From: a virus
Lineage: Duplodnaviria; Heunggongvirae; Uroviricota; Caudoviricetes
Reading direction: 5' to 3' (one strand)
Virus record (IMG/VR): IMGVR_UViG_2713896772_000022
DNA: 9,731 nucleotides
A program made the translations under genes and the position numbers. Of this stretch, positions 1-9,731 are shown piece by piece (positions within the stretch are counted from its first letter, which is position 1; every line of letters begins with the position of its first letter). The notes under the pieces were generated by a model, which was given only the letters and a program-made list of their open reading frames with translations, was not told where the DNA came from and made no database searches.

Positions 1-171
1 TTCTGACGAGTCGCTTACTTAAAAGTGAGATGTCAGCGATCATTACTAAAACGGTATACACATTCCTGCGCGCAATGCCCCGCCCGCCTGCCCGCTTCGC
101 TTAACAGACTGGTTTTCATGCACCCCGTAAATCGTCTCAGAAGCCACCACACAAGGGCTTTCGCGTCAAAA

Positions 172-206
172 ATGGCGCATGAGACTCATGCGTTTTCATG
201 CGCCAT
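172..206. repeat. Perfect 11-bp inverted repeat ATGGCGCATGA / TCATGCGCCAT with 13-nt spacer
   Basis: Read directly: 172-182 is the reverse complement of 196-206. The spacer carries further CATGCG copies. A5 precedes on the plus strand (T5 follows on the minus strand), so it could be a second minus-strand terminator or an operator. Confidence 0.6.
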
Positions 207-250
207 AGATATGCACTCATACGCTCTCAGGCCAGCCAGGAAAAAGGCGT

Positions 251-274
251 AAAAAATCCCGGTACTGGACCGGG
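251..274 (-). terminator. Rho-independent terminator of the late (sid-psu-ogr) operon
   Basis: Stem CCCGGT (258-263) / ACCGGG (269-274) with 5-nt loop. On the minus strand it is followed by ATTTTTT (251-257), 24 nt after the ogr-like stop at 298-300. Confidence 0.6.
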
Positions 275-297
275 ACTTCGTGGTCGTATTTTGCTAA

Positions 298-570
298 TCA
301 GACAGGAATTTGCTGACGGTTTGACAGCTTTGACGCGGAGCCATAGCGATTGAGAGTTTGCTGTTGTTTTTCCGGTATTTTTGCTTTGTCTGATTCCTGT
401 TCATTGCACCGAGGCTTCATAATTATCGTATCCACGCTTTCCAGTGCGGTAAATGTGCAGGAACATTCCAGATTCTGGCACTGATACCATGAGCGTTTAA
501 CCGACGGAGCTTCATAGGCGCTGGTTCTGGCGTGAGCGACCGCGCCACATTCAGGACACTTCAGGGCCAT
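298..570 (-). CDS. delta: Ogr/Delta-family zinc-finger late-gene transcriptional activator (90 aa)
   Basis: MALKCPECGAVAHARTSAYEAPSVKRSWYQCQNLECSCTFTALESV closely resembles P2 Ogr as I recall it (MFHCPLCQHAAHARTS...YHQCQNVNCSATF..ESV), with the C-x2-C...C-x4-C zinc motif. ATG at 570 chosen over the track start at 672 because the protein then starts at the conserved motif; GGAG lies ~10 nt upstream; ATG follows the psu stop (TGA 574-572) by one base. Confidence 0.85.
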   Translation of the reverse strand: MALKCPECGAVAHARTSAYEAPSVKRSWYQCQNLECSCTFTALESVDTIIMKPRCNEQESDKAKIPEKQQQTLNRYGSASKLSNRQQIPV

Positions 571-571
571 A

Positions 572-1126
572 TCAGCACACTCCTTTTTCATTAAGTCGGT
601 TAAGGCGGGCCAGGAAAACTTTATGTTGTGCCGGGGTGAAACTGGCTGAAGCATCAGCGCGCATTGATGCATCCACCGTTAATCCGGTTTCGTCGATAAT
701 GCTCTTATATGCTGCTGAAATTACCGGAGTACGCATTTCCGTTTGTCGGGCTACAGCGGTTCGTAATATTTTCATTGCCGCCTCAAGCCCGTATGGAGCG
801 CAAAGAAAAGGAGCCAGAGCGTCAGTGAGTGCATCACCATGCTCGCTCATGAAGTTTTCCGTTGCGCTTGTAACACAACTCTCCAGCACAATCTGATGAG
901 CATAAAGACCATCCCGTGCAGCACAGTTAATCTGCCATTCGAGGACTGCAAGACGCTCACGAAGATCCTCAAGCTGGCTGGCATATGCTGCCGGTTTTTC
1001 TTCAGTATCCAGCAGAGCCGCCAGACGAAGCTGGTAGGTACTTTGCGTATTACGTAGTGTCAGCCAGCTTTTTATCGCCGAGCGGTAATCGTTGAGTGCT
1101 TCCTGAGTAATGGTTCCGGCATTCAT
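572..1126 (-). CDS. psu: Polarity suppression protein Psu (184 aa)
   Basis: Segments FMSEHGDALTDALAPFL and ASFTPAQHKVFLAR match my recollection of P4 Psu (FMQQHGTALAAALAPEL; EKFTPAQNMIFSRK); length close to 190 aa. ATG at 1126-1124 overlaps the upstream stop TGA 1125-1123 (ATGA coupling). Confidence 0.85.
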   Translation of the reverse strand: MNAGTITQEALNDYRSAIKSWLTLRNTQSTYQLRLAALLDTEEKPAAYASQLEDLRERLAVLEWQINCAARDGLYAHQIVLESCVTSATENFMSEHGDALTDALAPFLCAPYGLEAAMKILRTAVARQTEMRTPVISAAYKSIIDETGLTVDASMRADASASFTPAQHKVFLARLNRLNEKGVC

Positions 1127-1875
1127 TTCTTCTCGCCCCCTTTAACCATGTCACGCTGTTTAAGCATCCGTGAACGCGCTGCAGGGCTGGGGGATTGTCT
1201 GGCATCCTGGATGGCTTTATCGTCCGCATAAATGCTGATCCCCGGCAGGGTAATATCATCGGTTGAAGATACGTTACAGGACAGTGCCGGAGTGGTGAGT
1301 TGCTCGCTGATAAATTGCTTCAGCACACTTTCGGGGTCGTTTACGGTATGAACTACACCGATAACAGCAGAAGCGCTTCGGCCCAGAGTCATTTTCAGCA
1401 GTCCAAGGATCTGAATAAGTTTCTGACCGTGTTCCTTCATAAACTCATTCCAGAGCCACACTGCATGAGTTTCAATCAGGCGATTATGTTCGCTGATGTA
1501 GTGGTTTGCAGCATCCGCAGTTTTCCAGGGCAGGAATTCATTTTCTGCCGCCTGAGCTGCCAGCAAATCTTCGAACTCATCCAGTGTTTCGCGTCCGAGG
1601 GCGATTTCTGCCCGCAGTTTTTTCATGCGTGGCGTCATATTTCCCTGATTCTCACGAAACAGGTTTCGCCATTCATCATTAAGCGCCTGCGTTTCCGTTT
1701 TTGTATCTTCCTGACGTTTACGGATAGTTTCAATCATTGCAGCAGCTTCAGTTTGTTTTCGTCGTTCTTCCTGCCAGACAGCTTTTGCTGCCTTAACTTT
1801 ATCCACCGCTTCGCGAATTTTCGGTGGGAGGGAGGGTGTAATGTTTGCATCAGGGATCTGGTTAACAGTAGTCAT
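1123..1875 (-). CDS. sid: Sid-like capsid size determination protein (putative, 250 aa)
   Basis: First gene of the late operon, immediately upstream of and coupled to psu; charged, helix-prone N-terminal half; size close to P4 Sid (244 aa). Track start at 1908 is TTG; the ATG at 1875 has GGAG 7 nt upstream. Assignment is by synteny and composition, not recognised motifs. Confidence 0.55.
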   Translation of the reverse strand: MTTVNQIPDANITPSLPPKIREAVDKVKAAKAVWQEERRKQTEAAAMIETIRKRQEDTKTETQALNDEWRNLFRENQGNMTPRMKKLRAEIALGRETLDEFEDLLAAQAAENEFLPWKTADAANHYISEHNRLIETHAVWLWNEFMKEHGQKLIQILGLLKMTLGRSASAVIGVVHTVNDPESVLKQFISEQLTTPALSCNVSSTDDITLPGISIYADDKAIQDARQSPSPAARSRMLKQRDMVKGGEKK

Positions 1876-1995
1876 GACTGCTCCGGTAGTGTTTTGTTGT
1901 TGTGTCAATTGTGCCGGGGTCCATACAAGCGCACTACCGAGGAGGATTGTGTCAGTGACTGAACAATGACCTTGTTCTGGCTAGCCAGAGAAAGG

Positions 1996-2013
1996 TGTCA
2001 TGTCTGATCTACA
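1996..2013 (-). promoter_or_regulatory. TGT-N12-ACA Ogr/Delta-type activator box; candidate Psid-like late promoter element
   Basis: TGT(1996-1998)-N12-ACA(2011-2013), ~125 bp upstream of the sid-like ATG. P2 late promoters and P4 Psid/PLL carry this dyad near -55. The -10 element was not confidently placed. Confidence 0.4.
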
Positions 2014-2030
2014 CGCTTCCTTTAATACAT

Positions 2031-2050
2031 ACTATTCACTACTGTTCACT
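2031..2050 (+). repeat. Tandem 10-bp direct repeat ACTATTCACT / ACTGTTCACT (TTCAC iteron-like)
   Basis: Read directly; contains TGTTCACT, one mismatch from the TGTTCACC octamer I recall as the P4 alpha-binding type I iteron. Confidence 0.45.
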
Positions 2051-2114
2051 TCAATAAAAATATAGTAAATACATGTGGTTAAGTGGTGTAGTGTTTTAAT
2101 TAAAGTGATCATCT

Positions 2115-2134
2115 ACTGTTCATGACTGTTCACA
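2115..2134 (+). promoter_or_regulatory. Tandem ACTGTTCATG / ACTGTTCACA repeat that also forms a TGT-N12-ACA box (2117-2134); iteron and/or PLL-like activator site
   Basis: Read directly. A CATATAAG -10-like hexamer lies at 2164-2171, ~45 bp downstream. The site is ~660 bp upstream of the alpA-like ATG, so the promoter assignment is weak. Confidence 0.35.
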
Positions 2135-2210
2135 GAGATAAAATTAAACATATATTTCTTTTTCATATAAGTCGCGATATTTATTTCAGTTTATTACTGG
2201 ATCTTTTCTC

Positions 2211-2250
2211 CTCACCAATATTCACCAGTATTCACCAGTATTCAATACAT
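2211..2250 (+). repeat. Four tandem 10-bp units CTCACCAATA / TTCACCAGTA / TTCACCAGTA / TTCAATACAT (ori-like iteron array)
   Basis: Read directly; helical-phase 10-bp periodicity and a TTCACC core. Confidence 0.5.
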
Positions 2251-2789
2251 ATTCTATGTAAAGAATAAAAGATGTCTTATGTCTGTTTAATAATTAAACA
2301 TTCAACCTCCCTGCACTCAGTTGCATTTCAGGAAAATATTCATAAAAATGAATTTGTCTGATGTTCATTAAACACATCCGGATACATGCGGAAGTAAGAT
2401 GGTAATTTAATTTCTTTAATCATCGGATTTATTGATACATATGGTGAGCTGTTTATTTTTGGCCGTTTTGGCTCTTTTATTAATCAGGTGTTGTCTTAGT
2501 GCTTATGATGTAACGCCCTGAATGATATGGGCTGGTTCAGATTTGAGCTGTGATCCTGCCTAGTGTAATAGACTTTTTTATTATTGATGCTCCTTATTAT
2601 ATTCCATAAAGGAATTGTTTGTTTTTGTTCGTTTCATACGGTTTTTAGCTGTTTTATTTTTTGAGAAATCAACATTTCACACAAAATAAATAAAGCATGC
2701 GCGAGCCGCTTATATAAACATAATAAGGAGCTACCTGAATCCGCATGGAATTGCCCGGACTGTTGTAAACATATTAGAGAGGTAGCCAG

Positions 2790-3050
2790 ATGAATAGTAT
2801 TTCCGTTTCCACCCCGGCACCAGCTGCTCCGGTGCTCCCGGTTCCGGCTCAGCAGGAGCGCTTCATACGATTACCTGAAGTGATGCACCTTTGCGGGCTA
2901 TCCCGTTCAACCATCTACGACCTTATCAGCCGCGATGCCTTCCCGCAGCAGATATCCCTGGGTGGAAAAAATGTGGCCTGGGTACAGTCGGAGGTCAGTG
3001 CATGGATGGCGGCGCGAATTGCTGCCCGCGAGCAAGGAGGCCATGCGTGA
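2790..3050 (+). CDS. AlpA/Vis-family phage transcriptional regulator (86 aa)
   Basis: [47 protein letters not shown] has the AlpA-family helix-turn-helix signature (LSRSTIY...FP..LGGR.V.W...E). ATG at 2790 with GAGAGG ~8 nt upstream; stop TGA 3048-3050. Confidence 0.85.
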
Positions 3051-3085
3051 AACTTGCTTTGCAGTCTCATCTTCTTTTTTCTGGC

Positions 3086-3115
3086 TTGCGTCCTGATATC
3101 TTTTCCAGGTATAGT
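3086..3115 (+). promoter_or_regulatory. Candidate sigma70 promoter (TTGCGT-N18-TATAGT), possible PLE-like promoter
   Basis: -35-like TTGCGT at 3086-3091 and -10-like TATAGT at 3110-3115; lies upstream of the seqA-like element. Predicted by eye only. Confidence 0.3.
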
Positions 3116-3144
3116 TTTCCCGCTGCCGCAAAATCGGCTGCCGG

Positions 3145-3177
3145 GCGTAGGAACCCGAGTTACTTATTGGCGACACC
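3145..3177 (+). promoter_or_regulatory. seqA-like target sequence (GCGTAGGAAC ... TACTTATTGG)
   Basis: Blocks GTAGGAA and CTTATTGG are exactly complementary to TTCCTAC (3321-3327) and CCAATAAG (3306-3313) downstream; the same two blocks recur at 3352-3392. Confidence 0.4.
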
Positions 3178-3178
3178 A

Positions 3179-3200
3179 GACGCGCCGTGCGTCTTTTTTT
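3179..3200 (+). terminator. Hairpin GACGC-GCCGT-GCGTC followed by T7 (terminator-like; possible immunity terminator or RNA structure)
   Basis: 5-bp GC stem at 3179-3183 / 3189-3193 and a run of seven T at 3194-3200, immediately after the seqA-like element. Confidence 0.4.
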
Positions 3201-3239
3201 ACGTCGTTGCTCAGGCACACCCATTTTTCGGGCTGCGGT

Positions 3240-3340
3240 GCTTATACCTTAGCCCCTTTCAGATAATGGTGGTCCGGGCGGGGCAGCCTTCGGGCTGGCC
3301 GGTTTCCAATAAGGCCGGTATTCCTACCCCCGTTCGGGTC
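3240..3340 (+). ncRNA. Candidate CI-like immunity RNA containing a seqB-like segment (3303-3330); boundaries approximate
   Basis: GC-rich untranslated stretch with several short hairpins (e.g. GCC-TTCG-GGC; CCGG...CCGG) and a segment antisense to both seqA-like and seqC-like. No convincing ORF with a ribosome-binding site. Confidence 0.25.
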
Positions 3341-3351
3341 ACCACCCATGA

Positions 3352-3392
3352 GCGTAGGAACTCCGGTGGTGGCATTTACCGCTACTTATTGG
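3352..3392 (+). promoter_or_regulatory. seqC-like target sequence overlapping the RBS of the first small gene
   Basis: GCGTAGGAAC at 3352-3361 and TACTTATTGG at 3383-3392; the second block is fused to the GGAGG Shine-Dalgarno of the ATG at 3404. Confidence 0.4.
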
Positions 3393-3403
3393 AGGTTGCC
3401 CTT

Positions 3404-3595
3404 ATGGCTACGATCCTCGCCCCGTCACATCCTCAATTTATATTTGTTTTTGCCGCCGTTCGTCGTGCAGAACGTAAACCACGTATCAGTATGCTGCGTA
3501 TCATCGCCAGCAATGAGCATCATGCACGTCTTTCACTGGTCCATGAGTATGTGCTTTGTCTTGCTGCTCGCCTGCCTGTCCGGGAGGTGATCTAA
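3404..3595 (+). CDS. Small protein (63 aa), first gene of the replication operon; possibly Kil-like with a nested in-frame internal start
   Basis: ATG at 3404 with GGAGG 8 nt upstream; stop TAA 3593-3595 overlaps the next ATG (TAATG). Internal in-frame Met at codon 30. Functional assignment is by position only. Confidence 0.4.
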
Positions 3596-3819
3596 TGAAT
3601 CACGCCGCAATCTCTTATGACGATATTCTCCGCCTGAAGCATCTTCGTAACGTGGGAGAGTTTGTCACTGGAATGGCTGTTCTTCAGGATTGCTACGAAA
3701 AACCTGCCAGTGCTCAATGTGAACAACTGGTTTCCCTGATTTATCTGATGACAGAGCAGCTTGATGGCGTGGTACAGCGTTGCCAGGATGACCTCATGAA
3801 CATGGAGGTGGTGCAATGA
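3595..3819 (+). CDS. Hypothetical small protein (74 aa)
   Basis: ATG at 3595 preceded by GGGAGGTGA about 6 nt upstream; the track's upstream extension starts at a non-ATG codon. Stop TGA 3817-3819 overlaps the next ATG (ATGA). Confidence 0.55.
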
Positions 3820-4139
3820 AATCACGCACTCTTTCCCTTTCACTTCGGGTAGCGTTGTATCGCCGCGCGGTAGCCTGCGCCTGGTTGAGTGCCTGCTATC
3901 AGCAAAACCGCCATCTGCAGCTCACTCTGGATGAAATTGAAACCGCTATTGCCCGTGAGCTTGAAGGATTTTATCTGCGACAGCACGGGCAAACAAAAGG
4001 CATGGAAATCGCCTGCGCCCTGCTTTCAGACCTGATGGAATACGGCCCTCTAATGTCCTGTCCCGCACTCTCCCAGCTCGGAATAGCCGTAATGGATGAG
4101 TTATGCGTCCGTCACATCAAAAAGCCGGTTTTACACTGA
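3816..4139 (+). CDS. Hypothetical protein (107 aa), immediately upstream of the primase
   Basis: ATG at 3816 with GGAGGTGG upstream; translationally coupled to the previous gene; stop TGA 4137-4139 is 14 nt before the primase ATG. Confidence 0.6.
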
Positions 4140-4153
4140 GGGAGAACTGCGTC

Positions 4154-6487
4154 ATGTCAGGAATGAAAGTCAGTCAGGCCGTGAAGGCTGCCCGCGGTCA
4201 CTGGGCTCAGATTCTGCCAGCGCTGGGCGTGAATATATTGAAAAATCGCCATCAGCCTTGCCCGGTCTGTGGCGGTAAAGATCGTTTTCGCTTCGACGAT
4301 CAGGAAGGACGCGGAACATGGTTCTGCAATCAGTGCGGAGCCGGGGATGGTTTAGCGCTTGTCACCAGGGCACTGAATGTGGATATCAGTGAAGCAGCTG
4401 ACAGGATACATGGACTGACACATGATCTGTCTGTAGTTAATTCCGAGGTCAGGACGTTAACCGCCGATACCGATAGCGGGAAAGATGCAGCGGCAGCACT
4501 TGCCGCGCGACTGCTGCAAGCCTCGCGTGAATCTGCCGGAAACACTTATCTTACACATAAAGGTTTCCCGGAGCATATTTGCCATGAGCTGACTTCAGCT
4601 CATAAGGCCGGTGGTATGATGTTCCGCCCCGGTGATTTGATCGTCCCACTCTATAACGCTGACGGGGAGCTGGTGAATATTCAGCTCATCAGTGGCAATG
4701 GTAGCAAGTGTTTTCTTAAAGGAGGTCAGGTTAAGGAGGCCTATCATCTGATAGAAGGGGGCGGGAGTTCTGTAAGAAGGATTTGGATTGCGGAAGGTTA
4801 CGCCACGGCGCTTACCATTCATTATTTGACAGGAGAAGCCGTCATGGTGGCATTTTCGTCGGTCAACTTTCTTTCTCTGAGCAGCGTTGCCCATAATAAG
4901 TATCCGGGATATCAGTTAATTATTGCAGCGGACCGCGATCTGAATGGTTCAGGCCAGAACAGGGCTGAAACTGCTGCAAAAGCGAGTCAGTGTGACATTG
5001 TGCTGCCACCGGTTTTTGGTGACTGGAATGATGCGCTTACCCAATACGGAGAGGAATCCACCCGGAAGGCAATTCTTGAGGCTTTGAAGCCACATAACGC
5101 CAGTCCTTTCGACACAATGAGTGAAGCAGAATTCACAGCGATGAGTGTCAGCGAAAAAGCTCAGAGGGTTCGGGAGCATTACAGGGATGCACTGGCGGTT
5201 GATCCGAACGGGCAGCTTTTATCCCGCTACGAGTCTGGAGCGTGGAAAGTTATTTCTCAGTCAGATTTTGCCCGAGATGTCGCAGCCCTTTTCCAGCGCC
5301 TCGGGGCACCGTTTTCCTCAGGAAAAATTGCCTCACTGGTGGAAACATTAAAGTTAATTGTTCCGCAGCAGCAAAATCCGTCACGTCATCTGATTGGTTT
5401 TCGTAATGGCGTTCTCGATACGCGAACAGGGCTTTTTAGTCCGCACTGTAAAGAGAACTGGCTGCGTACCCTGTGTGAAGTCGATTTCACGCCACCGGTA
5501 AAGGGGGAAACGCTTGAAACTCATGCCCCGGCATTCTGGCGTTGGCTGGACCGGGCCGCCGGACACAAGCCAGCAAAACGCGACATTATTCTTGCAGCGT
5601 TATTTATGGTGCTGGCGAACCGCTATGACTGGCAGCTCTTTCTGGAAGTGACTGGCCCTGGTGGAAGTGGCAAAAGTATTCTGGCTGAAATTGCGACCAT
5701 GCTTGCTGGAGAGGATAACGCCACCTCTGCGACCATTGAAACGCTGGAGTCCTCGCGAGAACGTGCGGCTCTGATAGGTTTTTCTCTTATTCGCCTGCCT
5801 GATCAGGAGAAGTGGAGCGGCGACGGCGCCGGGCTTAAGGCTATAACTGGTGGCGATGCAGTATCTGTGGACCCCAAATATCAGAATGCTTATTCAACAC
5901 ATATTCCGGCGGTTATCTTGGCCGTAAATAATAATCCTATGCGCTTCACTGATCGCAGTGGTGGTGTGTCCCGCAGGAGAGTTATTCTGCATTTTCCTGA
6001 GCAGATAGCACCGGAAGAACGCGATCCGCAGTTGAAAGATAAAATTGCACGAGAACTGGCTGTGATTGTTCGTCAGCTCATGCAGCGTTTCAGCGATCCG
6101 ATGAGCGCCAGAACATTGCTTCAGTCGCAGCAGAATTCTGATGAGGCTCTCACCATCAAGCGTGATGCTGATCCAGCATTTGATTTTTGTGGCTACCTTG
6201 AGGCATTACCTGACACCAACGGTATGTTTATGGGGAACGCCAATATTGTCCCACGCCAGCCACGTACATACCTTTACCATGCCTACCTCGTATACATGGA
6301 GGCTAATGGCTATAAAAACACCCTGAGTCTTACGATGTTTGGCAAAGGGTTGCCAGTCATGCTGAAGGAGTACGGGCTACATTATGAGAAACGGCGAACT
6401 AATCAGGGAATGCAAACTAACCTCACTTTGAAAGAGGAGAGTAATGCAGACTGGCTGCCCAAGTGTGATGAGCCAATATTAAAATAA
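4154..6487 (+). CDS. alpha: P4 alpha-type bifunctional DNA primase/helicase (777 aa)
   Basis: N-terminal zinc ribbon CPVCGGKDRFRFDD...CNQCG; Toprim-like IAEGYATALT and AADRD; Walker A VTGPGGSGKS of a D5/SF3-type helicase. ATG at 4154 has GAGGGAG 9 nt upstream and gives 777 aa, the length I recall for P4 alpha; the track start at 4103 is an alternative. Confidence 0.92.
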   Translation: MSGMKVSQAVKAARGHWAQILPALGVNILKNRHQPCPVCGGKDRFRFDDQEGRGTWFCNQCGAGDGLALVTRALNVDISEAADRIHGLTHDLSVVNSEVRTLTADTDSGKDAAAALAARLLQASRESAGNTYLTHKGFPEHICHELTSAHKAGGMMFRPGDLIVPLYNADGELVNIQLISGNGSKCFLKGGQVKEAYHLIEGGGSSVRRIWIAEGYATALTIHYLTGEAVMVAFSSVNFLSLSSVAHNKYPGYQLIIAADRDLNGSGQNRAETAAKASQCDIVLPPVFGDWNDALTQYGEESTRKAILEALKPHNASPFDTMSEAEFTAMSVSEKAQRVREHYRDALAVDPNGQLLSRYESGAWKVISQSDFARDVAALFQRLGAPFSSGKIASLVETLKLIVPQQQNPSRHLIGFRNGVLDTRTGLFSPHCKENWLRTLCEVDFTPPVKGETLETHAPAFWRWLDRAAGHKPAKRDIILAALFMVLANRYDWQLFLEVTGPGGSGKSILAEIATMLAGEDNATSATIETLESSRERAALIGFSLIRLPDQEKWSGDGAGLKAITGGDAVSVDPKYQNAYSTHIPAVILAVNNNPMRFTDRSGGVSRRRVILHFPEQIAPEERDPQLKDKIARELAVIVRQLMQRFSDPMSARTLLQSQQNSDEALTIKRDADPAFDFCGYLEALPDTNGMFMGNANIVPRQPRTYLYHAYLVYMEANGYKNTLSLTMFGKGLPVMLKEYGLHYEKRRTNQGMQTNLTLKEESNADWLPKCDEPILK

Positions 6488-6498
6488 CGATTAACTAA

Positions 6499-6523
6499 CC
6501 CGGCTGATGCCGGGCTTCTTATT
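6499..6523 (+). terminator. Rho-independent terminator downstream of the primase
   Basis: Stem CCCGGC (6499-6504) / GCCGGG (6509-6514), loop TGAT, then CTTCTTATT; 12 nt after the primase stop. Confidence 0.5.
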
Positions 6524-6548
6524 GGAAACGCACAAATGTAGAGATAGC

Positions 6549-6575
6549 TGTTCACTCTTCACCTCGCTGTTAACA
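6549..6575 (+). repeat. crr-like iteron cluster: TGTTCAC, TTCACC and the palindrome TGTTAACA
   Basis: Read directly. Further inverted copies at 6610-6617 (GGTGAATA) and 6750-6756 (GTGAACA). The same motif family recurs ~4.4 kb away at 2031-2250. Confidence 0.45.
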
Positions 6576-6837
6576 CGTAAGCAATTGATATATAAGTTAA
6601 AAATGGCAGGGTGAATAGTGTGCATGGTTTTGCGAAAAAAAAGTATTTTTTGTAGAGTCAAGTCCCGGTTTGGATCCGTTTAACGGAACCTAACTAGATT
6701 GACTATTTCTCTGATGATTTTTGGATAAATAATCAACAAAAATCAAAATGTGAACAGAGAATGGTGGGGGCACAAAAAGGGGCATAATTGAATTAATTAT
6801 AATTAAATTTCAATTTTTACAATAGGTTAAATGTGTG

Positions 6838-6859
6838 TGCGAGTCCGGCCTTCGCACCA
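6838..6859 (+). other. att core-like sequence (partial tRNA 3' end ...GAGTCCGGCCTTCGCACCA); putative attR and satellite boundary
   Basis: TGCGAGTCCGGCCTTCGCACCA resembles the T-loop/acceptor 3' end of tRNA-Leu leuX and the P4 attP core as I recall them, with one missing G. No complete tRNA lies upstream (AT-rich), so it is a partial copy. The coding character changes downstream. Confidence 0.5.
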
Positions 6860-7392
6860 AGTTACTAAATTCCTTACAATACAGTTAGTTAGACGATTAA
6901 ATCTGTCTCTTTTGCCTGTAAGAAATGCTCTGTTATGTCCCTTGAAAAAGCCGCTGTGGTTGATAGTGGTAATTGGGATGTTAACTCATAGCGGCGTGTC
7001 GTTCCAAGCGTCAAACACGTACTGACTCAACTTGAAAGCTATGACGTAGCCACCGTCTCTAAACAATCCCAAAACTTTTAGTGCAGCGCATTTTAGCCCG
7101 ATGCCCCCATTCTGTCGCCGTCGCGAGACGCCGCAGGGGATAAACAGGTTTATGGTGGTCACGGTACTTGCAGACCATATGCAAGCTCTGCCAGCGGTTC
7201 GGCCTCGCTCCCCTTGGGTACATGGTCATCCTGATAAGCCTCACTAACTGACATAACCCTGATGAAGTCGCAAGAGGCTCCGCTTGTTGTCTTACCACCA
7301 ACGGGGCTTTATGGATTCTATTGCTTAATATATGATTGTATCAAACTTAGACTGCATAATTTAAACGAACATAACAATCAGGCAGGGGAAGA

Positions 7393-8217
7393 ATGATAAA
7401 GCCATTTTCTGTGAGGTATGGTCATGTTGACGTTAGAGAGCATGTCCAGCTGAATGATCTTAATTCTGATACACGCATGGCATTGTGGAATTGCTTATAT
7501 CTTTTCCTTTGGACTAACAATCGTCAAACTGCTACAGCAACAAAATGTGCGCAGTCTGTGTGGATATATTATCTAAATCAACCTGCGGATAATATTCCTC
7601 GTTATGAAAGTGGATACAAAAGTGATAAGACGTTGCTGACTGCTATCCGAGATTATATATATGGGGAAGCATGGTATTTGGTATATGATTTAATTGAGTT
7701 CATCATTGAGAGAACTAATTCATATATTAATCTATCGAAGCATCTCAATTCCATCTTTAAAAAGCATGGCGTTGGTTATACCATAATAAATGGTTGTATT
7801 ACTCCTATTTCAAATGATAACGAAATTGAAAGTGTTCAGAACGCAGTTGATAATGGCACTGATTCATCGCGTAGCCATTTCGAAAGGGCGTTACAACTAA
7901 TGACGGATAGAGAGCAGCCAGACTACAGAAACTCGATTAAAGAGTCTATCTCTGCAATTGAATCTTTATGCAGGAAAATCACGGGCAATGATAAAGGAAC
8001 CTTGGGGGCTTGTCTTAAAGCTATAGAGGAAAAAGGATATATACACTCTGCAATGAAAGGCGCTTTTAGTCAGCTCTATGGTTATACAAGTGATCAGGGT
8101 GGAATACGTCATGCGCTAACAGAAGAAGATGTAAATCCTACCTTAGCTGAAGCTAAATTTATGTTAGTCACTTGCAGTGCGTTCAGTAATTATCTGTTGT
8201 CAAAAATAAGTGATTAA
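7393..8217 (+). CDS. Hypothetical protein (274 aa), low-GC cargo; function unknown
   Basis: ATG at 7393 with GGGGAAG upstream; long uninterrupted ORF with AT-rich codon usage unlike the satellite core; stop TAA 8215-8217 followed by a strong hairpin. No motif I can assign with confidence. Confidence 0.75.
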   Translation: MIKPFSVRYGHVDVREHVQLNDLNSDTRMALWNCLYLFLWTNNRQTATATKCAQSVWIYYLNQPADNIPRYESGYKSDKTLLTAIRDYIYGEAWYLVYDLIEFIIERTNSYINLSKHLNSIFKKHGVGYTIINGCITPISNDNEIESVQNAVDNGTDSSRSHFERALQLMTDREQPDYRNSIKESISAIESLCRKITGNDKGTLGACLKAIEEKGYIHSAMKGAFSQLYGYTSDQGGIRHALTEEDVNPTLAEAKFMLVTCSAFSNYLLSKISD

Positions 8218-8235
8218 TTACAGGTTTATAGTTAC

Positions 8236-8256
8236 GAGTGGGTTAGTTACCCACTC
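8236..8256. terminator. Hairpin between convergent genes (GAGTGGGT-TAGTT-ACCCACTC), likely bidirectional terminator
   Basis: Perfect 8-bp stem at 8236-8243 / 8249-8256, between the stop codons at 8215-8217 (plus) and 8266-8268 (minus). Confidence 0.5.
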
Positions 8257-8265
8257 CCTTTAAAA

Positions 8266-8838
8266 TTATTCACCAGACTCTAATCTTTTTTCTCTTTTCT
8301 CATCTCTCCTTTTTATTGCCAAATCGTGTTGCTCTTGCAGATACGTGCGTTCTTCGTTTCTATCGCTTGAAGTATATACGTCTGCTTTTACTTTTTTAGC
8401 TCCTTGTGCAATAGGTTTCCAATCCTCTCTTATACCTTTAATTTGTTCTGCAATTTGCGTCAATGGGCTTCTCGCTCCTAGATAACTTATTCCTTCAAAT
8501 GTCGCCATGTCATACACATATTCATTTGTTTCTCTATCGTTTGATTTAGGTTTGCTTGCCCAGCTTATATTAATATTATAAATTTGATCTTTGATTTGTT
8601 CATACTTACAGAGATTGCTGGTAAGTGATTGCCCATTTTTTAACACGCTTACCTTACTAAACGGAATCTCACTTTTTTCTCTATGCTCCGCATTTACTAG
8701 TGGAGGATCAAACACAACCTCAACATTATAGGCAGGTGCGTTCCCTGTATTAGCAATGTTAATATCAAAGTAAAAAGCGGCCCAAGGGTTTGGCTCAAGT
8801 GTTACAACTATATGGGGTTGAGCTGATGCGTCAACCAT
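8266..8838 (-). CDS. Hypothetical protein (~190 aa), low-GC cargo; 5' end abuts the IS911 terminus
   Basis: The track ORF (208 aa) starts at GTG 8892, inside the IS-end sequence. The first ATG is at 8838 (MVDASAQPHIVV...) with only a weak Shine-Dalgarno. N-terminal half looks beta-rich, C-terminal tail highly charged (KRRDEKREKRLE). Confidence 0.6.
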   Translation of the reverse strand: MVDASAQPHIVVTLEPNPWAAFYFDINIANTGNAPAYNVEVVFDPPLVNAEHREKSEIPFSKVSVLKNGQSLTSNLCKYEQIKDQIYNINISWASKPKSNDRETNEYVYDMATFEGISYLGARSPLTQIAEQIKGIREDWKPIAQGAKKVKADVYTSSDRNEERTYLQEQHDLAIKRRDEKREKRLESGE

Positions 8839-8938
8839 TCTTTTTGTCTCGTCTGCTCTGAAGTGGTGAAGTGGTTTACTGAATTTGGCCACCTGAACAG
8901 AGGTGATATGCTCACCTCAGAACAACACAGGTGCTCCA

Positions 8939-9731
<793 letters not shown>

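Follow-up and report, generated by a model that had tools for sequence, protein, structure and literature searches.

The closest described counterparts of the locus examined here are IS911, the DUF8453 / phrog_11802 protein family and the hybrid promoters carried by insertion sequences. Loot and colleagues in 2002 and Turlan and colleagues in 2004 are said to have described the insertion of IS911 beside IS ends. The inverted repeats of IS911 are 36 bp long, and its OrfAB protein arises via −1 frameshifting between orfA and orfB (PMC2909936). The element carries an outward −35 in its right inverted repeat (IRR) and a −10 in its left one (IRL) (PMC9330008), and IS dimers and junctions promote adjacent deletions (PMC9330008; PMC9333248). 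Members of the DUF8453 / phrog_11802 family are called 'lysogenic conversion protein' of P2-like prophages in some sources. Full-length DUF8453 genes sit between the tail-sheath and tail-fibre-assembly genes of these prophages, a location that we take to be the Z/fun position. The Z/fun locus has been cited as a site of antiviral genes (PMC13586616).

In the whole stretch of DNA analysed, which is 9,731 nt long and is referred to as the window, an IS911 copy adjoins a DUF8453 gene. Like the fec-linked IS911 of K-12-type strains, this copy has a left inverted repeat of the form TGAAGTGG...ACTGAATTTGGCCACC, an orfA encoding HTH_Tnp_1, the heptamer AAAAAAG and the same right flank, but it differs in an extra octamer at the tip, in TTT for CAC at IRL positions 9–11, in an IRR reading CCACAACAG instead of CCACTTCA, in a frameshifted transposase, in the lack of a direct repeat and in its left flank. 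The soluble part of the DUF8453 protein is 67–82% identical to its relatives, whereas residues 1–37 with the anchor helix (...TAVATFFLWRVT...) are missing and the protein falls short of the ~230 aa of the family. As in the IS911 fusion promoter (pjunc), the end of an IS3-family element borders a coding sequence on its 5' side, an arrangement from which hybrid promoters can arise; unlike in the pjunc paradigm, the gene adjoins the IRL while the outward −35 belongs to the IRR, the start codon and ribosome binding site are lost, and a sigma-70 consensus scan showed no promoter-like site on the minus strand of the IS end. Finally, an IS911-type tip adjoining an IS911 end, here and in many other contexts, resembles insertion beside IS ends, but the products described in PMC9333248 are IRL-IRR junctions whereas the tips found here are direct tandem copies.

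The AbiJ_NTD4/DUF8453 module and its truncated gene

A P4-like satellite takes up the left 6.8 kb of the window, and two convergent genes lie to its right. The features of this part are listed below.

1 to 6862: P4-like satellite with Psu, a Sid-like protein, Ash, DUF5375 and a primase-helicase
6840 to 6862, plus strand: copy of the 3' end of tRNA-Leu (leuX), 23/24 nt matching, read as the satellite attR
7393 to 8217, plus strand: intact AbiJ_NTD4 gene, convergent to the next (Pfam 5.8e-27; PADLOC PDC-S32 5.6e-104)
8266 to 8857, minus strand: 3' fragment of a DUF8453 / phrog_11802 gene, from the phrog_11802 match and protein and DNA alignment
8836 to 8838, minus strand: first ATG of the fragment, a conserved internal Met45 of the full-length protein, from in-frame homology upstream
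8890 to 8892, minus strand: GTG opening the mechanical 208-aa ORF, from the ORF list and translation

The hotspot of P4-like elements lies between psu and int (PMC9122126). In the window, the leuX copy forms the left edge of the AbiJ/DUF8453 module, homology to the satellite-free strains Nissle 1917 and E2348/69 starts at 6837, and satellite-free strains carry the same module after leuX or another island. The position of the leuX copy and the satellite-free homology from 6837 together indicate that the module, judged by these alignments, lies outside the satellite in a leuX-adjacent island and not in the psu-int hotspot. The 190-aa gene had been described as cargo, a label that does not hold for a gene beyond the attR. 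We also considered AbiJ_NTD4 and this gene as a two-gene system and rejected the idea: PDC-S32 is a single-gene candidate defence system in PADLOC, the pair is convergent, and P2-like prophages carry DUF8453 on its own.

The ORF list contains a 208-aa ORF on the minus strand that opens with GTG 8892 and ends at 8266; the first ATG in its frame occupies 8836–8838 on that strand. Two octamers lie at the IS end, the outer one 20 nt and the inner one 28 nt from this ATG, in agreement with the preliminary description, which had placed it ~20–30 bp from the IS terminus in an ORF reading into IS-derived sequence. Codons 1–12 of the 208-aa ORF come from the outer octamer, C8858 and the IS, and the next six (ADETKR) come from the gene. 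RefSeq/PGAP lists the fragment as an intact 190-aa CDS (WP_000227281.1), and recent PGAP runs have named identical copies 'DUF8453 domain-containing protein'. The window protein matched phrog_11802 at 2.4e-81 over profile positions 45–228 of 230 only, whereas a full-length homolog from a P2-like prophage covers positions 1–230. Neither the 190-aa protein nor its full-length homologs had any match in Pfam-A or PADLOC, and both gave weak matches alone in NCBIfam, far under the curated cut-offs.

Comparison with uninterrupted homologs revealed that the gene is incomplete. Full-length relatives have 228–235 aa, and their ~38 extra N-terminal codons specify a conserved transmembrane helix; among them are an AbiJ_NTD4/DUF8453 locus of Enterobacter roggenkampii, ~90% identical, and the copies found in P2-like prophages of E. 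coli. The relatives read MIEFI...TAVATFFLWRVTRLLA(D/N)ETKRMVDAS..., against ...HHFR-ADETKRMVDAS in the window; the proteins of the ~75%-identity E. coli homologs open with MIEFI..HI..IST.ISAFAALLTAVATFFLWRVTRLLA(D/N)ETKRMVDAS, against ...KPLHHFR-ADETKRMVDAS 5' of the ATG. A remote BLAST search with 8230–8858 returned 476 records from E. coli that are at least 99% identical and about 101 further ones at 60–80% identity (~75% among the matches listed), in which the alignment reaches window position 8857 and the annotated CDS has 693 nt (230 aa). In a collection of 5.8 billion proteins, every match at 99% identity or more has 190–220 aa, many being cut at contig ends inside the IS, and the nearest complete proteins are 77–82% identical and mostly 234 aa long. 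Alignments of 16 and 33 sequences showed that the N-terminal hydrophobic segment is near-invariant and that the Met at 8838 is a conserved internal residue.

The best comparator is E. roggenkampii contig JAKMKF010000023, which carries a convergent pair of AbiJ_NTD4 (274 aa) and DUF8453 (234 aa) genes as the window does. Window positions 6837–8857 align with contig positions 7135–5114 at 89.8% identity over 2,024 nt, and the alignment ends 113 nt into the contig's CDS. DNA homology to three other uninterrupted loci (L003, L004 and L005) ends at 8857 as well, the base where the alignments of the E. coli paralogs end. On the coding strand at the breakpoint, the contig reads ...AGG CTA TTA GCA AAC GAA... 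and the window ...CAC TTC AGA GCA GAC GAG.... In E. roggenkampii numbering, the fragment thus comprises the last base of codon 38, codons 39–234 and the stop, and codons 1–37 and two bases of codon 38 are missing. The native start is preceded by GAGGGAGAAGAATG and has the Shine-Dalgarno sequence GAGGGAG upstream; ATG 8838 is preceded by GACAAAAAGAATG. An upstream intergenic region of ~460 bp, which separates the gene from a divergent resolvase in the E. roggenkampii contig and in E2348/69, is also lost. The exact allele was not recovered in an intact form, and the native sequence given here for the breakpoint comes from a gene of 80% nucleotide identity (~90% for the locus overall) and from the conserved protein motif.

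Because the homologs extend upstream and the DNA homology ends at 8857, the 5' end of the gene, its ribosome binding site and its promoter are gone, in line with one of the two alternatives in the preliminary description, loss of the native N-terminus and promoter; the full-length homologs start ~44 residues upstream. The 190-aa ORF is, on these alignments, a leftover 3' fragment, and ATG 8838 is not a native start. PGAP's call of an intact 190-aa CDS could instead be taken at face value, with 8838 as the true start of a whole native gene and a promoter of the gene's own in the gap from 8839 to the IS end. The phrog_11802 coverage and the protein and DNA alignments already refute this reading, and we regard it as extremely improbable: just 20 nt separate the ATG from IS-type sequence, ADETKR persists in frame 5' of the ATG and is homologous to ...LLA(D/N)ETKRM of full-length proteins, and all 28 complete homologs examined carry the extra N-terminal helix. 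No member of the family was seen to start at the Met at 8838.

The lost segment is the protein's sole transmembrane helix, and the Kyte-Doolittle maximum over 19 residues is 1.92 in the full-length protein (residues 12–30) versus 0.78 in the fragment. An AF2 model of a full-length homolog (P0040, mean pLDDT 80) has a helix at residues 2–49, a beta sandwich at 54–154 and C-terminal helices. A Foldseek search of this model against the PDB gave generic single-pass, Ig-like and pilin-like matches, none with E ≤0.001, so no function can be assigned. Members of the DUF8453 family can be described as predicted membrane-anchored, Ig-like proteins of prophage accessory loci and nothing more specific.

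The IS911 copy, its junction with the gene and expression of the fragment

The part of the window to the right of the gene holds the features listed below.

8858, no strand: orphan C between gene- and IS-derived sequence; uninterrupted loci have A
8859 to 8866, plus strand: outer copy of the IS911 terminal octamer TGAAGTGG; not gene sequence, and other IS911 copies do not align across it
8867 to 8902, plus strand: IS911 left inverted repeat, 36 bp, TTT variant; unrelated copies align from 8867
8867 to 9731, plus strand: decayed IS911, left 865 bp, running past the window end; 95.8% identical to the YJ4 IS911
8939 to 9244, plus strand: orfA, 101 codons and a stop (HTH_Tnp_1, 8.4e-14)
9190 to 9196, plus strand: heptamer AAAAAAG, an IS911-type −1 frameshift site by its sequence

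We take AAAAAAG at 9190–9196 to be the slippery heptamer of IS911. The ORF that contains orfA opens at 8903 or 8939 and ends at 9244, Pfam detects the HTH_Tnp_1 domain in it, and it has a 3-nt insertion at 9200–9202 relative to the YJ4 copy. A query of 8780–9100 matched 4,623 E. coli records, in which copies in unrelated contexts (K-12, plasmids and ISEc52-type relatives) align from query position 88, equivalent to window position 8867; inspection of canonical IS911 left ends showed the flank followed directly by TGAAGTGGCACACTGAATTTGGCC. Starting at 8867, the IRL of the window has the TGAAGTGG start and the conserved subterminal ACTGAATTTGGCCACC of an IS911 terminal repeat. Since unrelated copies align from 8867, the inner TGAAGTGG is the functional tip of the IS and the start of the 36-bp IRL. 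The TTT at 8875–8877 in place of CAC was considered as a scar of the duplication and rejected, since left ends of the TTT type exist in other flanks (L024, L026 and L030).

Together with its flanks, the element is 95.8% identical over 1,634 nt to an IS911 of strain YJ4 that carries this name from PGAP, which exceeds the ~95% expected of an IS911 copy. The transposase is annotated by PGAP as 'IS3 family transposase, frameshifted', several indels distinguish the copy from the intact YJ4 IS911, and a full copy (L008) ends in an IRR tip of CCACAACAG, not CCACTTCA, so that neither the IRR nor the orfAB is that of an autonomous element. Because of the frameshift, the indels and the altered IRR tip, the copy is a decayed fossil rather than an active element.

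The left flank of the IS is CTC (TGG if counted from 8867) and the right flank ACT, and there is no 3-bp target duplication. To the right of the IS lie a 258-nt ORF and then fecE...fecI, an arrangement common to K-12-type strains, whose left IS flank is a different truncated gene. The missing 5' part of the DUF8453 gene is absent from the other side of the IS; this part and the upstream region were found in 150 E. coli records, essentially carriers of full-length paralogs, compared with 476 for the fragment. In E2348/69, the intact gene is followed by the resolvase, a helicase and ~20 more island genes, with no IS911-fec segment. Because there is no target repeat, the 5' part is missing and the right flank is of the K-12 type, simple insertion is excluded on sequence grounds as the origin of the junction; of the earlier proposal that IS911 landed at the 5' end of the gene, the truncation stands and the simple insertion does not.

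The junction would instead be the product of an adjacent deletion mediated by IS911 or of recombination of the fec-linked IS911 with another copy that lay in the gene, and both routes fit. The starting locus would have held an intact DUF8453 gene, convergent to AbiJ_NTD4 just downstream of leuX, with its own Shine-Dalgarno sequence and an upstream intergenic region in which a promoter would lie. In this lineage, the left end of IS911 is joined to nucleotide 114 of the gene; missing are the first 113 nt with the transmembrane helix, the ribosome binding site and promoter, and the resolvase and helicase genes next door. The GTG at 8892 is an accident of read-through from the IS end. Among 5,426 complete E. 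coli genomes, 462 (8.5%) carry exactly this junction, in some cases interrupted further by IS30 within the IS or by IS600 in the fragment at ~8738, and the fragment would have spread unchanged with the IS911-fec segment.

Could the IS end drive the fragment? The −10 in the IRL of IS911 presumably faces inward. The gene adjoins the IRL, and its transcription would need outward reading from there. A sigma-70 consensus scan of the minus strand from 8859 to 9300 found no promoter-like site and thus no outward −35/−10 pair; two matches of the scan on this strand (8834..8807 and 8602..8575) fall within the coding sequence, and their number does not exceed chance. No Shine-Dalgarno sequence is present at a usable distance from ATG 8838 or GTG 8892. 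Most likely, the fragment would be silent or non-functional, giving at most traces of an anchor-less product.

It had been suggested that the insertion may supply an outward-reading promoter, and a DUF8453 protein without its anchor, soluble and translated from either 8838 or 8892, might keep or gain a function. The frame is indeed open from 8892 to 8266, it is conserved at 99–100% in ~476 genomes, and Met45 is near-invariant in the family. However, the IS end lacks a promoter-like site, the known outward element of IS911 is the −35 in the IRR and not in the IRL (PMC9330008), neither start has a usable Shine-Dalgarno sequence, the near-invariant transmembrane helix is gone, and the conservation of the frame is explained by the recent spread of identical copies. 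We thus consider a functional product expressed from the IS end improbable. As copies of the fragment are 99–100% identical across phylogroups, the open 190-codon frame is uninformative about selection, and the dN/dS of ~0.10 between the window and the E. roggenkampii gene mostly reflects divergence before the truncation and is silent on the later period. Overall, the ORF is very probably the 3' remnant of a membrane-protein gene of ~234 codons that was truncated via IS911, with an accidental GTG at 8892, and is likely silent.

The doubled tip octamer and tip repeats at other IS911 left ends

At the junction, TGAAGTGG occurs twice in tandem (8859–8866 and 8867–8874), as had been noted in the preliminary description. 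The junction reads ...cgtctgct c TGAAGTGG TGAAGTGG tttactgaatttggccacc... and, over a longer stretch, ...CGTCTGCT C TGAAGTGG TGAAGTGG TTTACTGAATTTGGCCACCTGAACAG.... This is the sole exact tandem 8-mer in the whole window. Composition-preserving shuffles gave 0.17 tandem 8-mers per window, with at least one anywhere in 12% of the shuffles; at one fixed position such as the IS tip, the probability of a chance tandem copy is ~4^-8.

Other IS911 copies place both the outer octamer and C8858 outside the element. C8858 makes an AGA codon (Arg) where the family has a near-invariant Leu. At the site of the outer octamer, uninterrupted loci carry TAATAGCC, in which 2 of the 8 bases match TGAAGTGG, and TGAAGTGG would encode H-F-R in place of the near-invariant T-R-L-L, breaking the VTRLLA motif. 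These comparisons mark the outer octamer as IS-type rather than gene sequence, although the reading rests on relatives of the gene. Two origins had been offered for the repeat: a terminal micro-duplication fits these data, and a coincidence at the target site does not. That the outer octamer was a native target, with the IS inserted by chance or preference beside a tip-like sequence of the gene, has precedents in an E. albertii plasmid (L013), in which GTC repeats on both sides of the IS show that an outer CTGAAGT was already in the target, and in the dual target specificity of IS911, including insertion beside IS ends, that PMC9333248 reports citing Loot 2002. Given the 2/8 match of TAATAGCC and the H-F-R replacement, we find this origin very improbable for the window. 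We would instead trace the outer octamer either to an IS911 event that left a scar at an IS911 end, or to a short duplication arising as the joint was repaired.

Similar tip repeats were collected at the left ends of IS911 copies from at least six contexts unrelated to one another; these are cases and not a frequency.

L006, plasmid pTW10722: TGAAGTGGC twice; left flank unlike that of L018
L018, metagenome contig: TGAAGTGGC twice; left flank unlike that of L006
L013, E. albertii plasmid: CTGAAGT twice; GTC 3-bp repeat on both sides of the IS
L015, E. albertii plasmid: TGAAGTGGT / TGTAGTGGC
L014, plasmid pHS30-1: 24-bp tip twice
L024, 5.4-Mb contig: TGAAGTGGTTT twice; no target repeat
L030, metagenome contig: TGAAG three times; no target repeat

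The L013 case shows, by the GTC repeat that flanks the IS on both sides, an insertion beside tip-like sequence whose outer partial copy predates the IS. Tip repeats at the IRL of IS911 almost always start at the first base of the IS, and their recurrence and this starting point suggest an origin linked to transposition. A synthetic IRR+IRL query recovered fossils of the classic IRR-3 bp-IRL junction (IRR-GAG-IRL) and no IS911 nested in an IS911 tip. Among GTDB species representatives, the doubled tip gave one chance match, in an Ignavibacteriaceae MAG.

One possible origin, which we hold tentatively, is that the outer octamer is the tip remnant of an earlier IS911-family left end. The present copy would have entered in or beside that end in the same orientation, and the copies would then have collapsed by homologous recombination. 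Repeats of 5, 8, 9, 9, 11 and 24 bp start exactly at the first base of the IS in unrelated flanks, the same TGAAGTGGC repeat occurs in two different left flanks, the transpososome model leaves the IR tip free for the catalytic domain (PMC2909936), and IS911 is reported in PMC9333248 to target IS ends. On the other hand, the synthetic query found no uncollapsed nested structure in 5,426 complete E. coli genomes, and the end-targeting described in that paper yields IRL-IRR junctions and not direct tip repeats.

The octamer may also be a small tandem duplication. It would have formed while the joint was repaired, through slippage or through strand displacement with flap ligation, or else later in replication; this too seems to us possible, short of probable. 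The repeats are perfect and head to tail, L030 has three TGAAG copies with TG microhomology, and some units take in one flanking base (CTGAAGT in L013 and TTGAAGTGG in L015). Yet microhomology is absent in most cases, generic slippage would not cluster exactly at the IS boundary, and no site was encountered both with the duplication and without it.

It is conceivable, if rather unlikely, that direct repeats of the IS911 left tip (5–24 bp, from the first base) are a recurrent and undescribed footprint of IS911 acting on IS911 ends, left when a copy inserts into the exposed tip of a left end already in place and the tandem copies then collapse, or by faulty repair of the joint. If this is true, the doubled TGAAGTGG of the window would be one such scar, and tip-repeat scars could reveal where IS-on-IS events and adjacent deletions took place in the past. 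For specialists in transposition, the recurrence of these tip repeats offers a small lead.

Implications for annotation and for the DUF8453 family

As an event, this is an ordinary truncation of a gene by a decayed IS911, already present in hundreds of public genomes, and it adds to the picture of a leuX/fec-adjacent variable region that appears to have been shaped by IS911-mediated rearrangement. Public annotation treats WP_000227281.1 and its variants of 191–220 aa as intact, under the names hypothetical or 'lysogenic conversion' protein, in E. coli genomes that number in the hundreds, with Nissle 1917, the type strain and O26 STEC among the carriers. Entries of this type should be corrected to 5'-truncated fragments that lack the predicted membrane anchor of the family. 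As a result, tests of phage exclusion by the DUF8453 family would need a full-length allele, either from a P2-like prophage or from E. roggenkampii.

Repeated tips at IS911 left ends

At the junction in the window, and just outside the left inverted repeat (IRL) of other IS911 copies, the left-end tip of the element is directly repeated, and this was found in at least seven unrelated flanks. The repeated units measure 5, 7, 8, 9, 9, 9, 11, and 24 bp, and most of the repeats begin precisely with base 1 of the IS.

Positions of IS911 tip repeats
Window 8859-8874, tip repeat
L006 (plasmid pTW10722) 3002-3019, tip repeat
L013 (E. albertii plasmid) ~1502-1517, tip repeat
L014 (plasmid pHS30-1) 1489-1536, tip repeat
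L015 (E. albertii plasmid) ~1501-1518, tip repeat
L018 and L030 (metagenome contigs) and L024 (5.4-Mb contig), minus strand, tip repeats

At L013 a 3-bp repeat, GTC, demonstrates that the outer tip copy pre-existed in the target; a target repeat is absent at the tip repeats of L024 and L030.

Decay of the IS911 copy and IS traffic at the junction

The right tip of the element lies past the right edge of the window and was examined at L008, a genome locus with the whole IS911 copy, where positions 5325-5339 read ...GTTGACCACAACAG in place of ...GTTGACCACTTCA, that is, TT changed to AA together with one extra base. Both ends of this copy are therefore altered, and it is probably immobile. Compared with the intact IS911 of strain YJ4, orfA has three nucleotides (ACA, window 9200-9202) inserted shortly after the AAAAAAG frameshift heptamer, and in the A-run region the two aligned copies differ in length by 1 nt.

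Other elements have entered the same region: IS600 lies within the truncated DUF8453 fragment in O26:H11 strains (window ~8738; locus L002), and IS30 lies within IS911 in Nissle 1917, the type strain, and K-12-type strains (window ~9200; locus L001). Neither is present in the window, showing that IS traffic at this junction has been repeated. Separately, plasmid NZ_CP062900.1 (L033 ~1610-1635) carries a fossil junction, right inverted repeat (IRR)-GAG-IRL, between two truncated IS911 fragments; circles and dimers have this arrangement at their active junctions.

DUF8453 and its upstream region

In P2-like prophages, full-length DUF8453 genes are found between the tail-sheath and tail-fibre-assembly genes, which is the Z/fun position; in one such prophage ISVsa5 adjoins the gene.

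Full-length DUF8453 genes in E. coli P2-like prophages
L004 3920-4612
L005 3930-4622

Roughly 90 nt from upstream of the full-length DUF8453 gene recur at 80% identity in ~45 E. coli genomes with no annotated gene beneath them (for example NZ_AP022222.1, 4357477-4357567), and this piece may be what is left of the same island promoter region, differently arranged. Just inside the truncated fragment, downstream of the ATG at 8838, window 8834..8807 (-) holds a promoter-like TTGACG, 16 nt, TATAGT (10/12 matches); such sites are no more frequent in this region than in shuffles, and homologs do not conserve the -10.

The satellite edge and the AbiJ_NTD4 gene

The 3' end of the tRNA-Leu gene leuX is copied at window 6840-6862 (24 nt; 23/24 bases match), and this copy marks attR of the P4-like satellite, which spans 1-6862; the AbiJ_NTD4/DUF8453 module is outside the satellite. 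The AbiJ_NTD4 gene (window 7393-8217, +) is intact and matches PDC-S32, a single-gene candidate defence system of PADLOC, at 5.6e-104. AbiJ_NTD4 and DUF8453 are also paired in Enterobacter roggenkampii, convergently as in the window.
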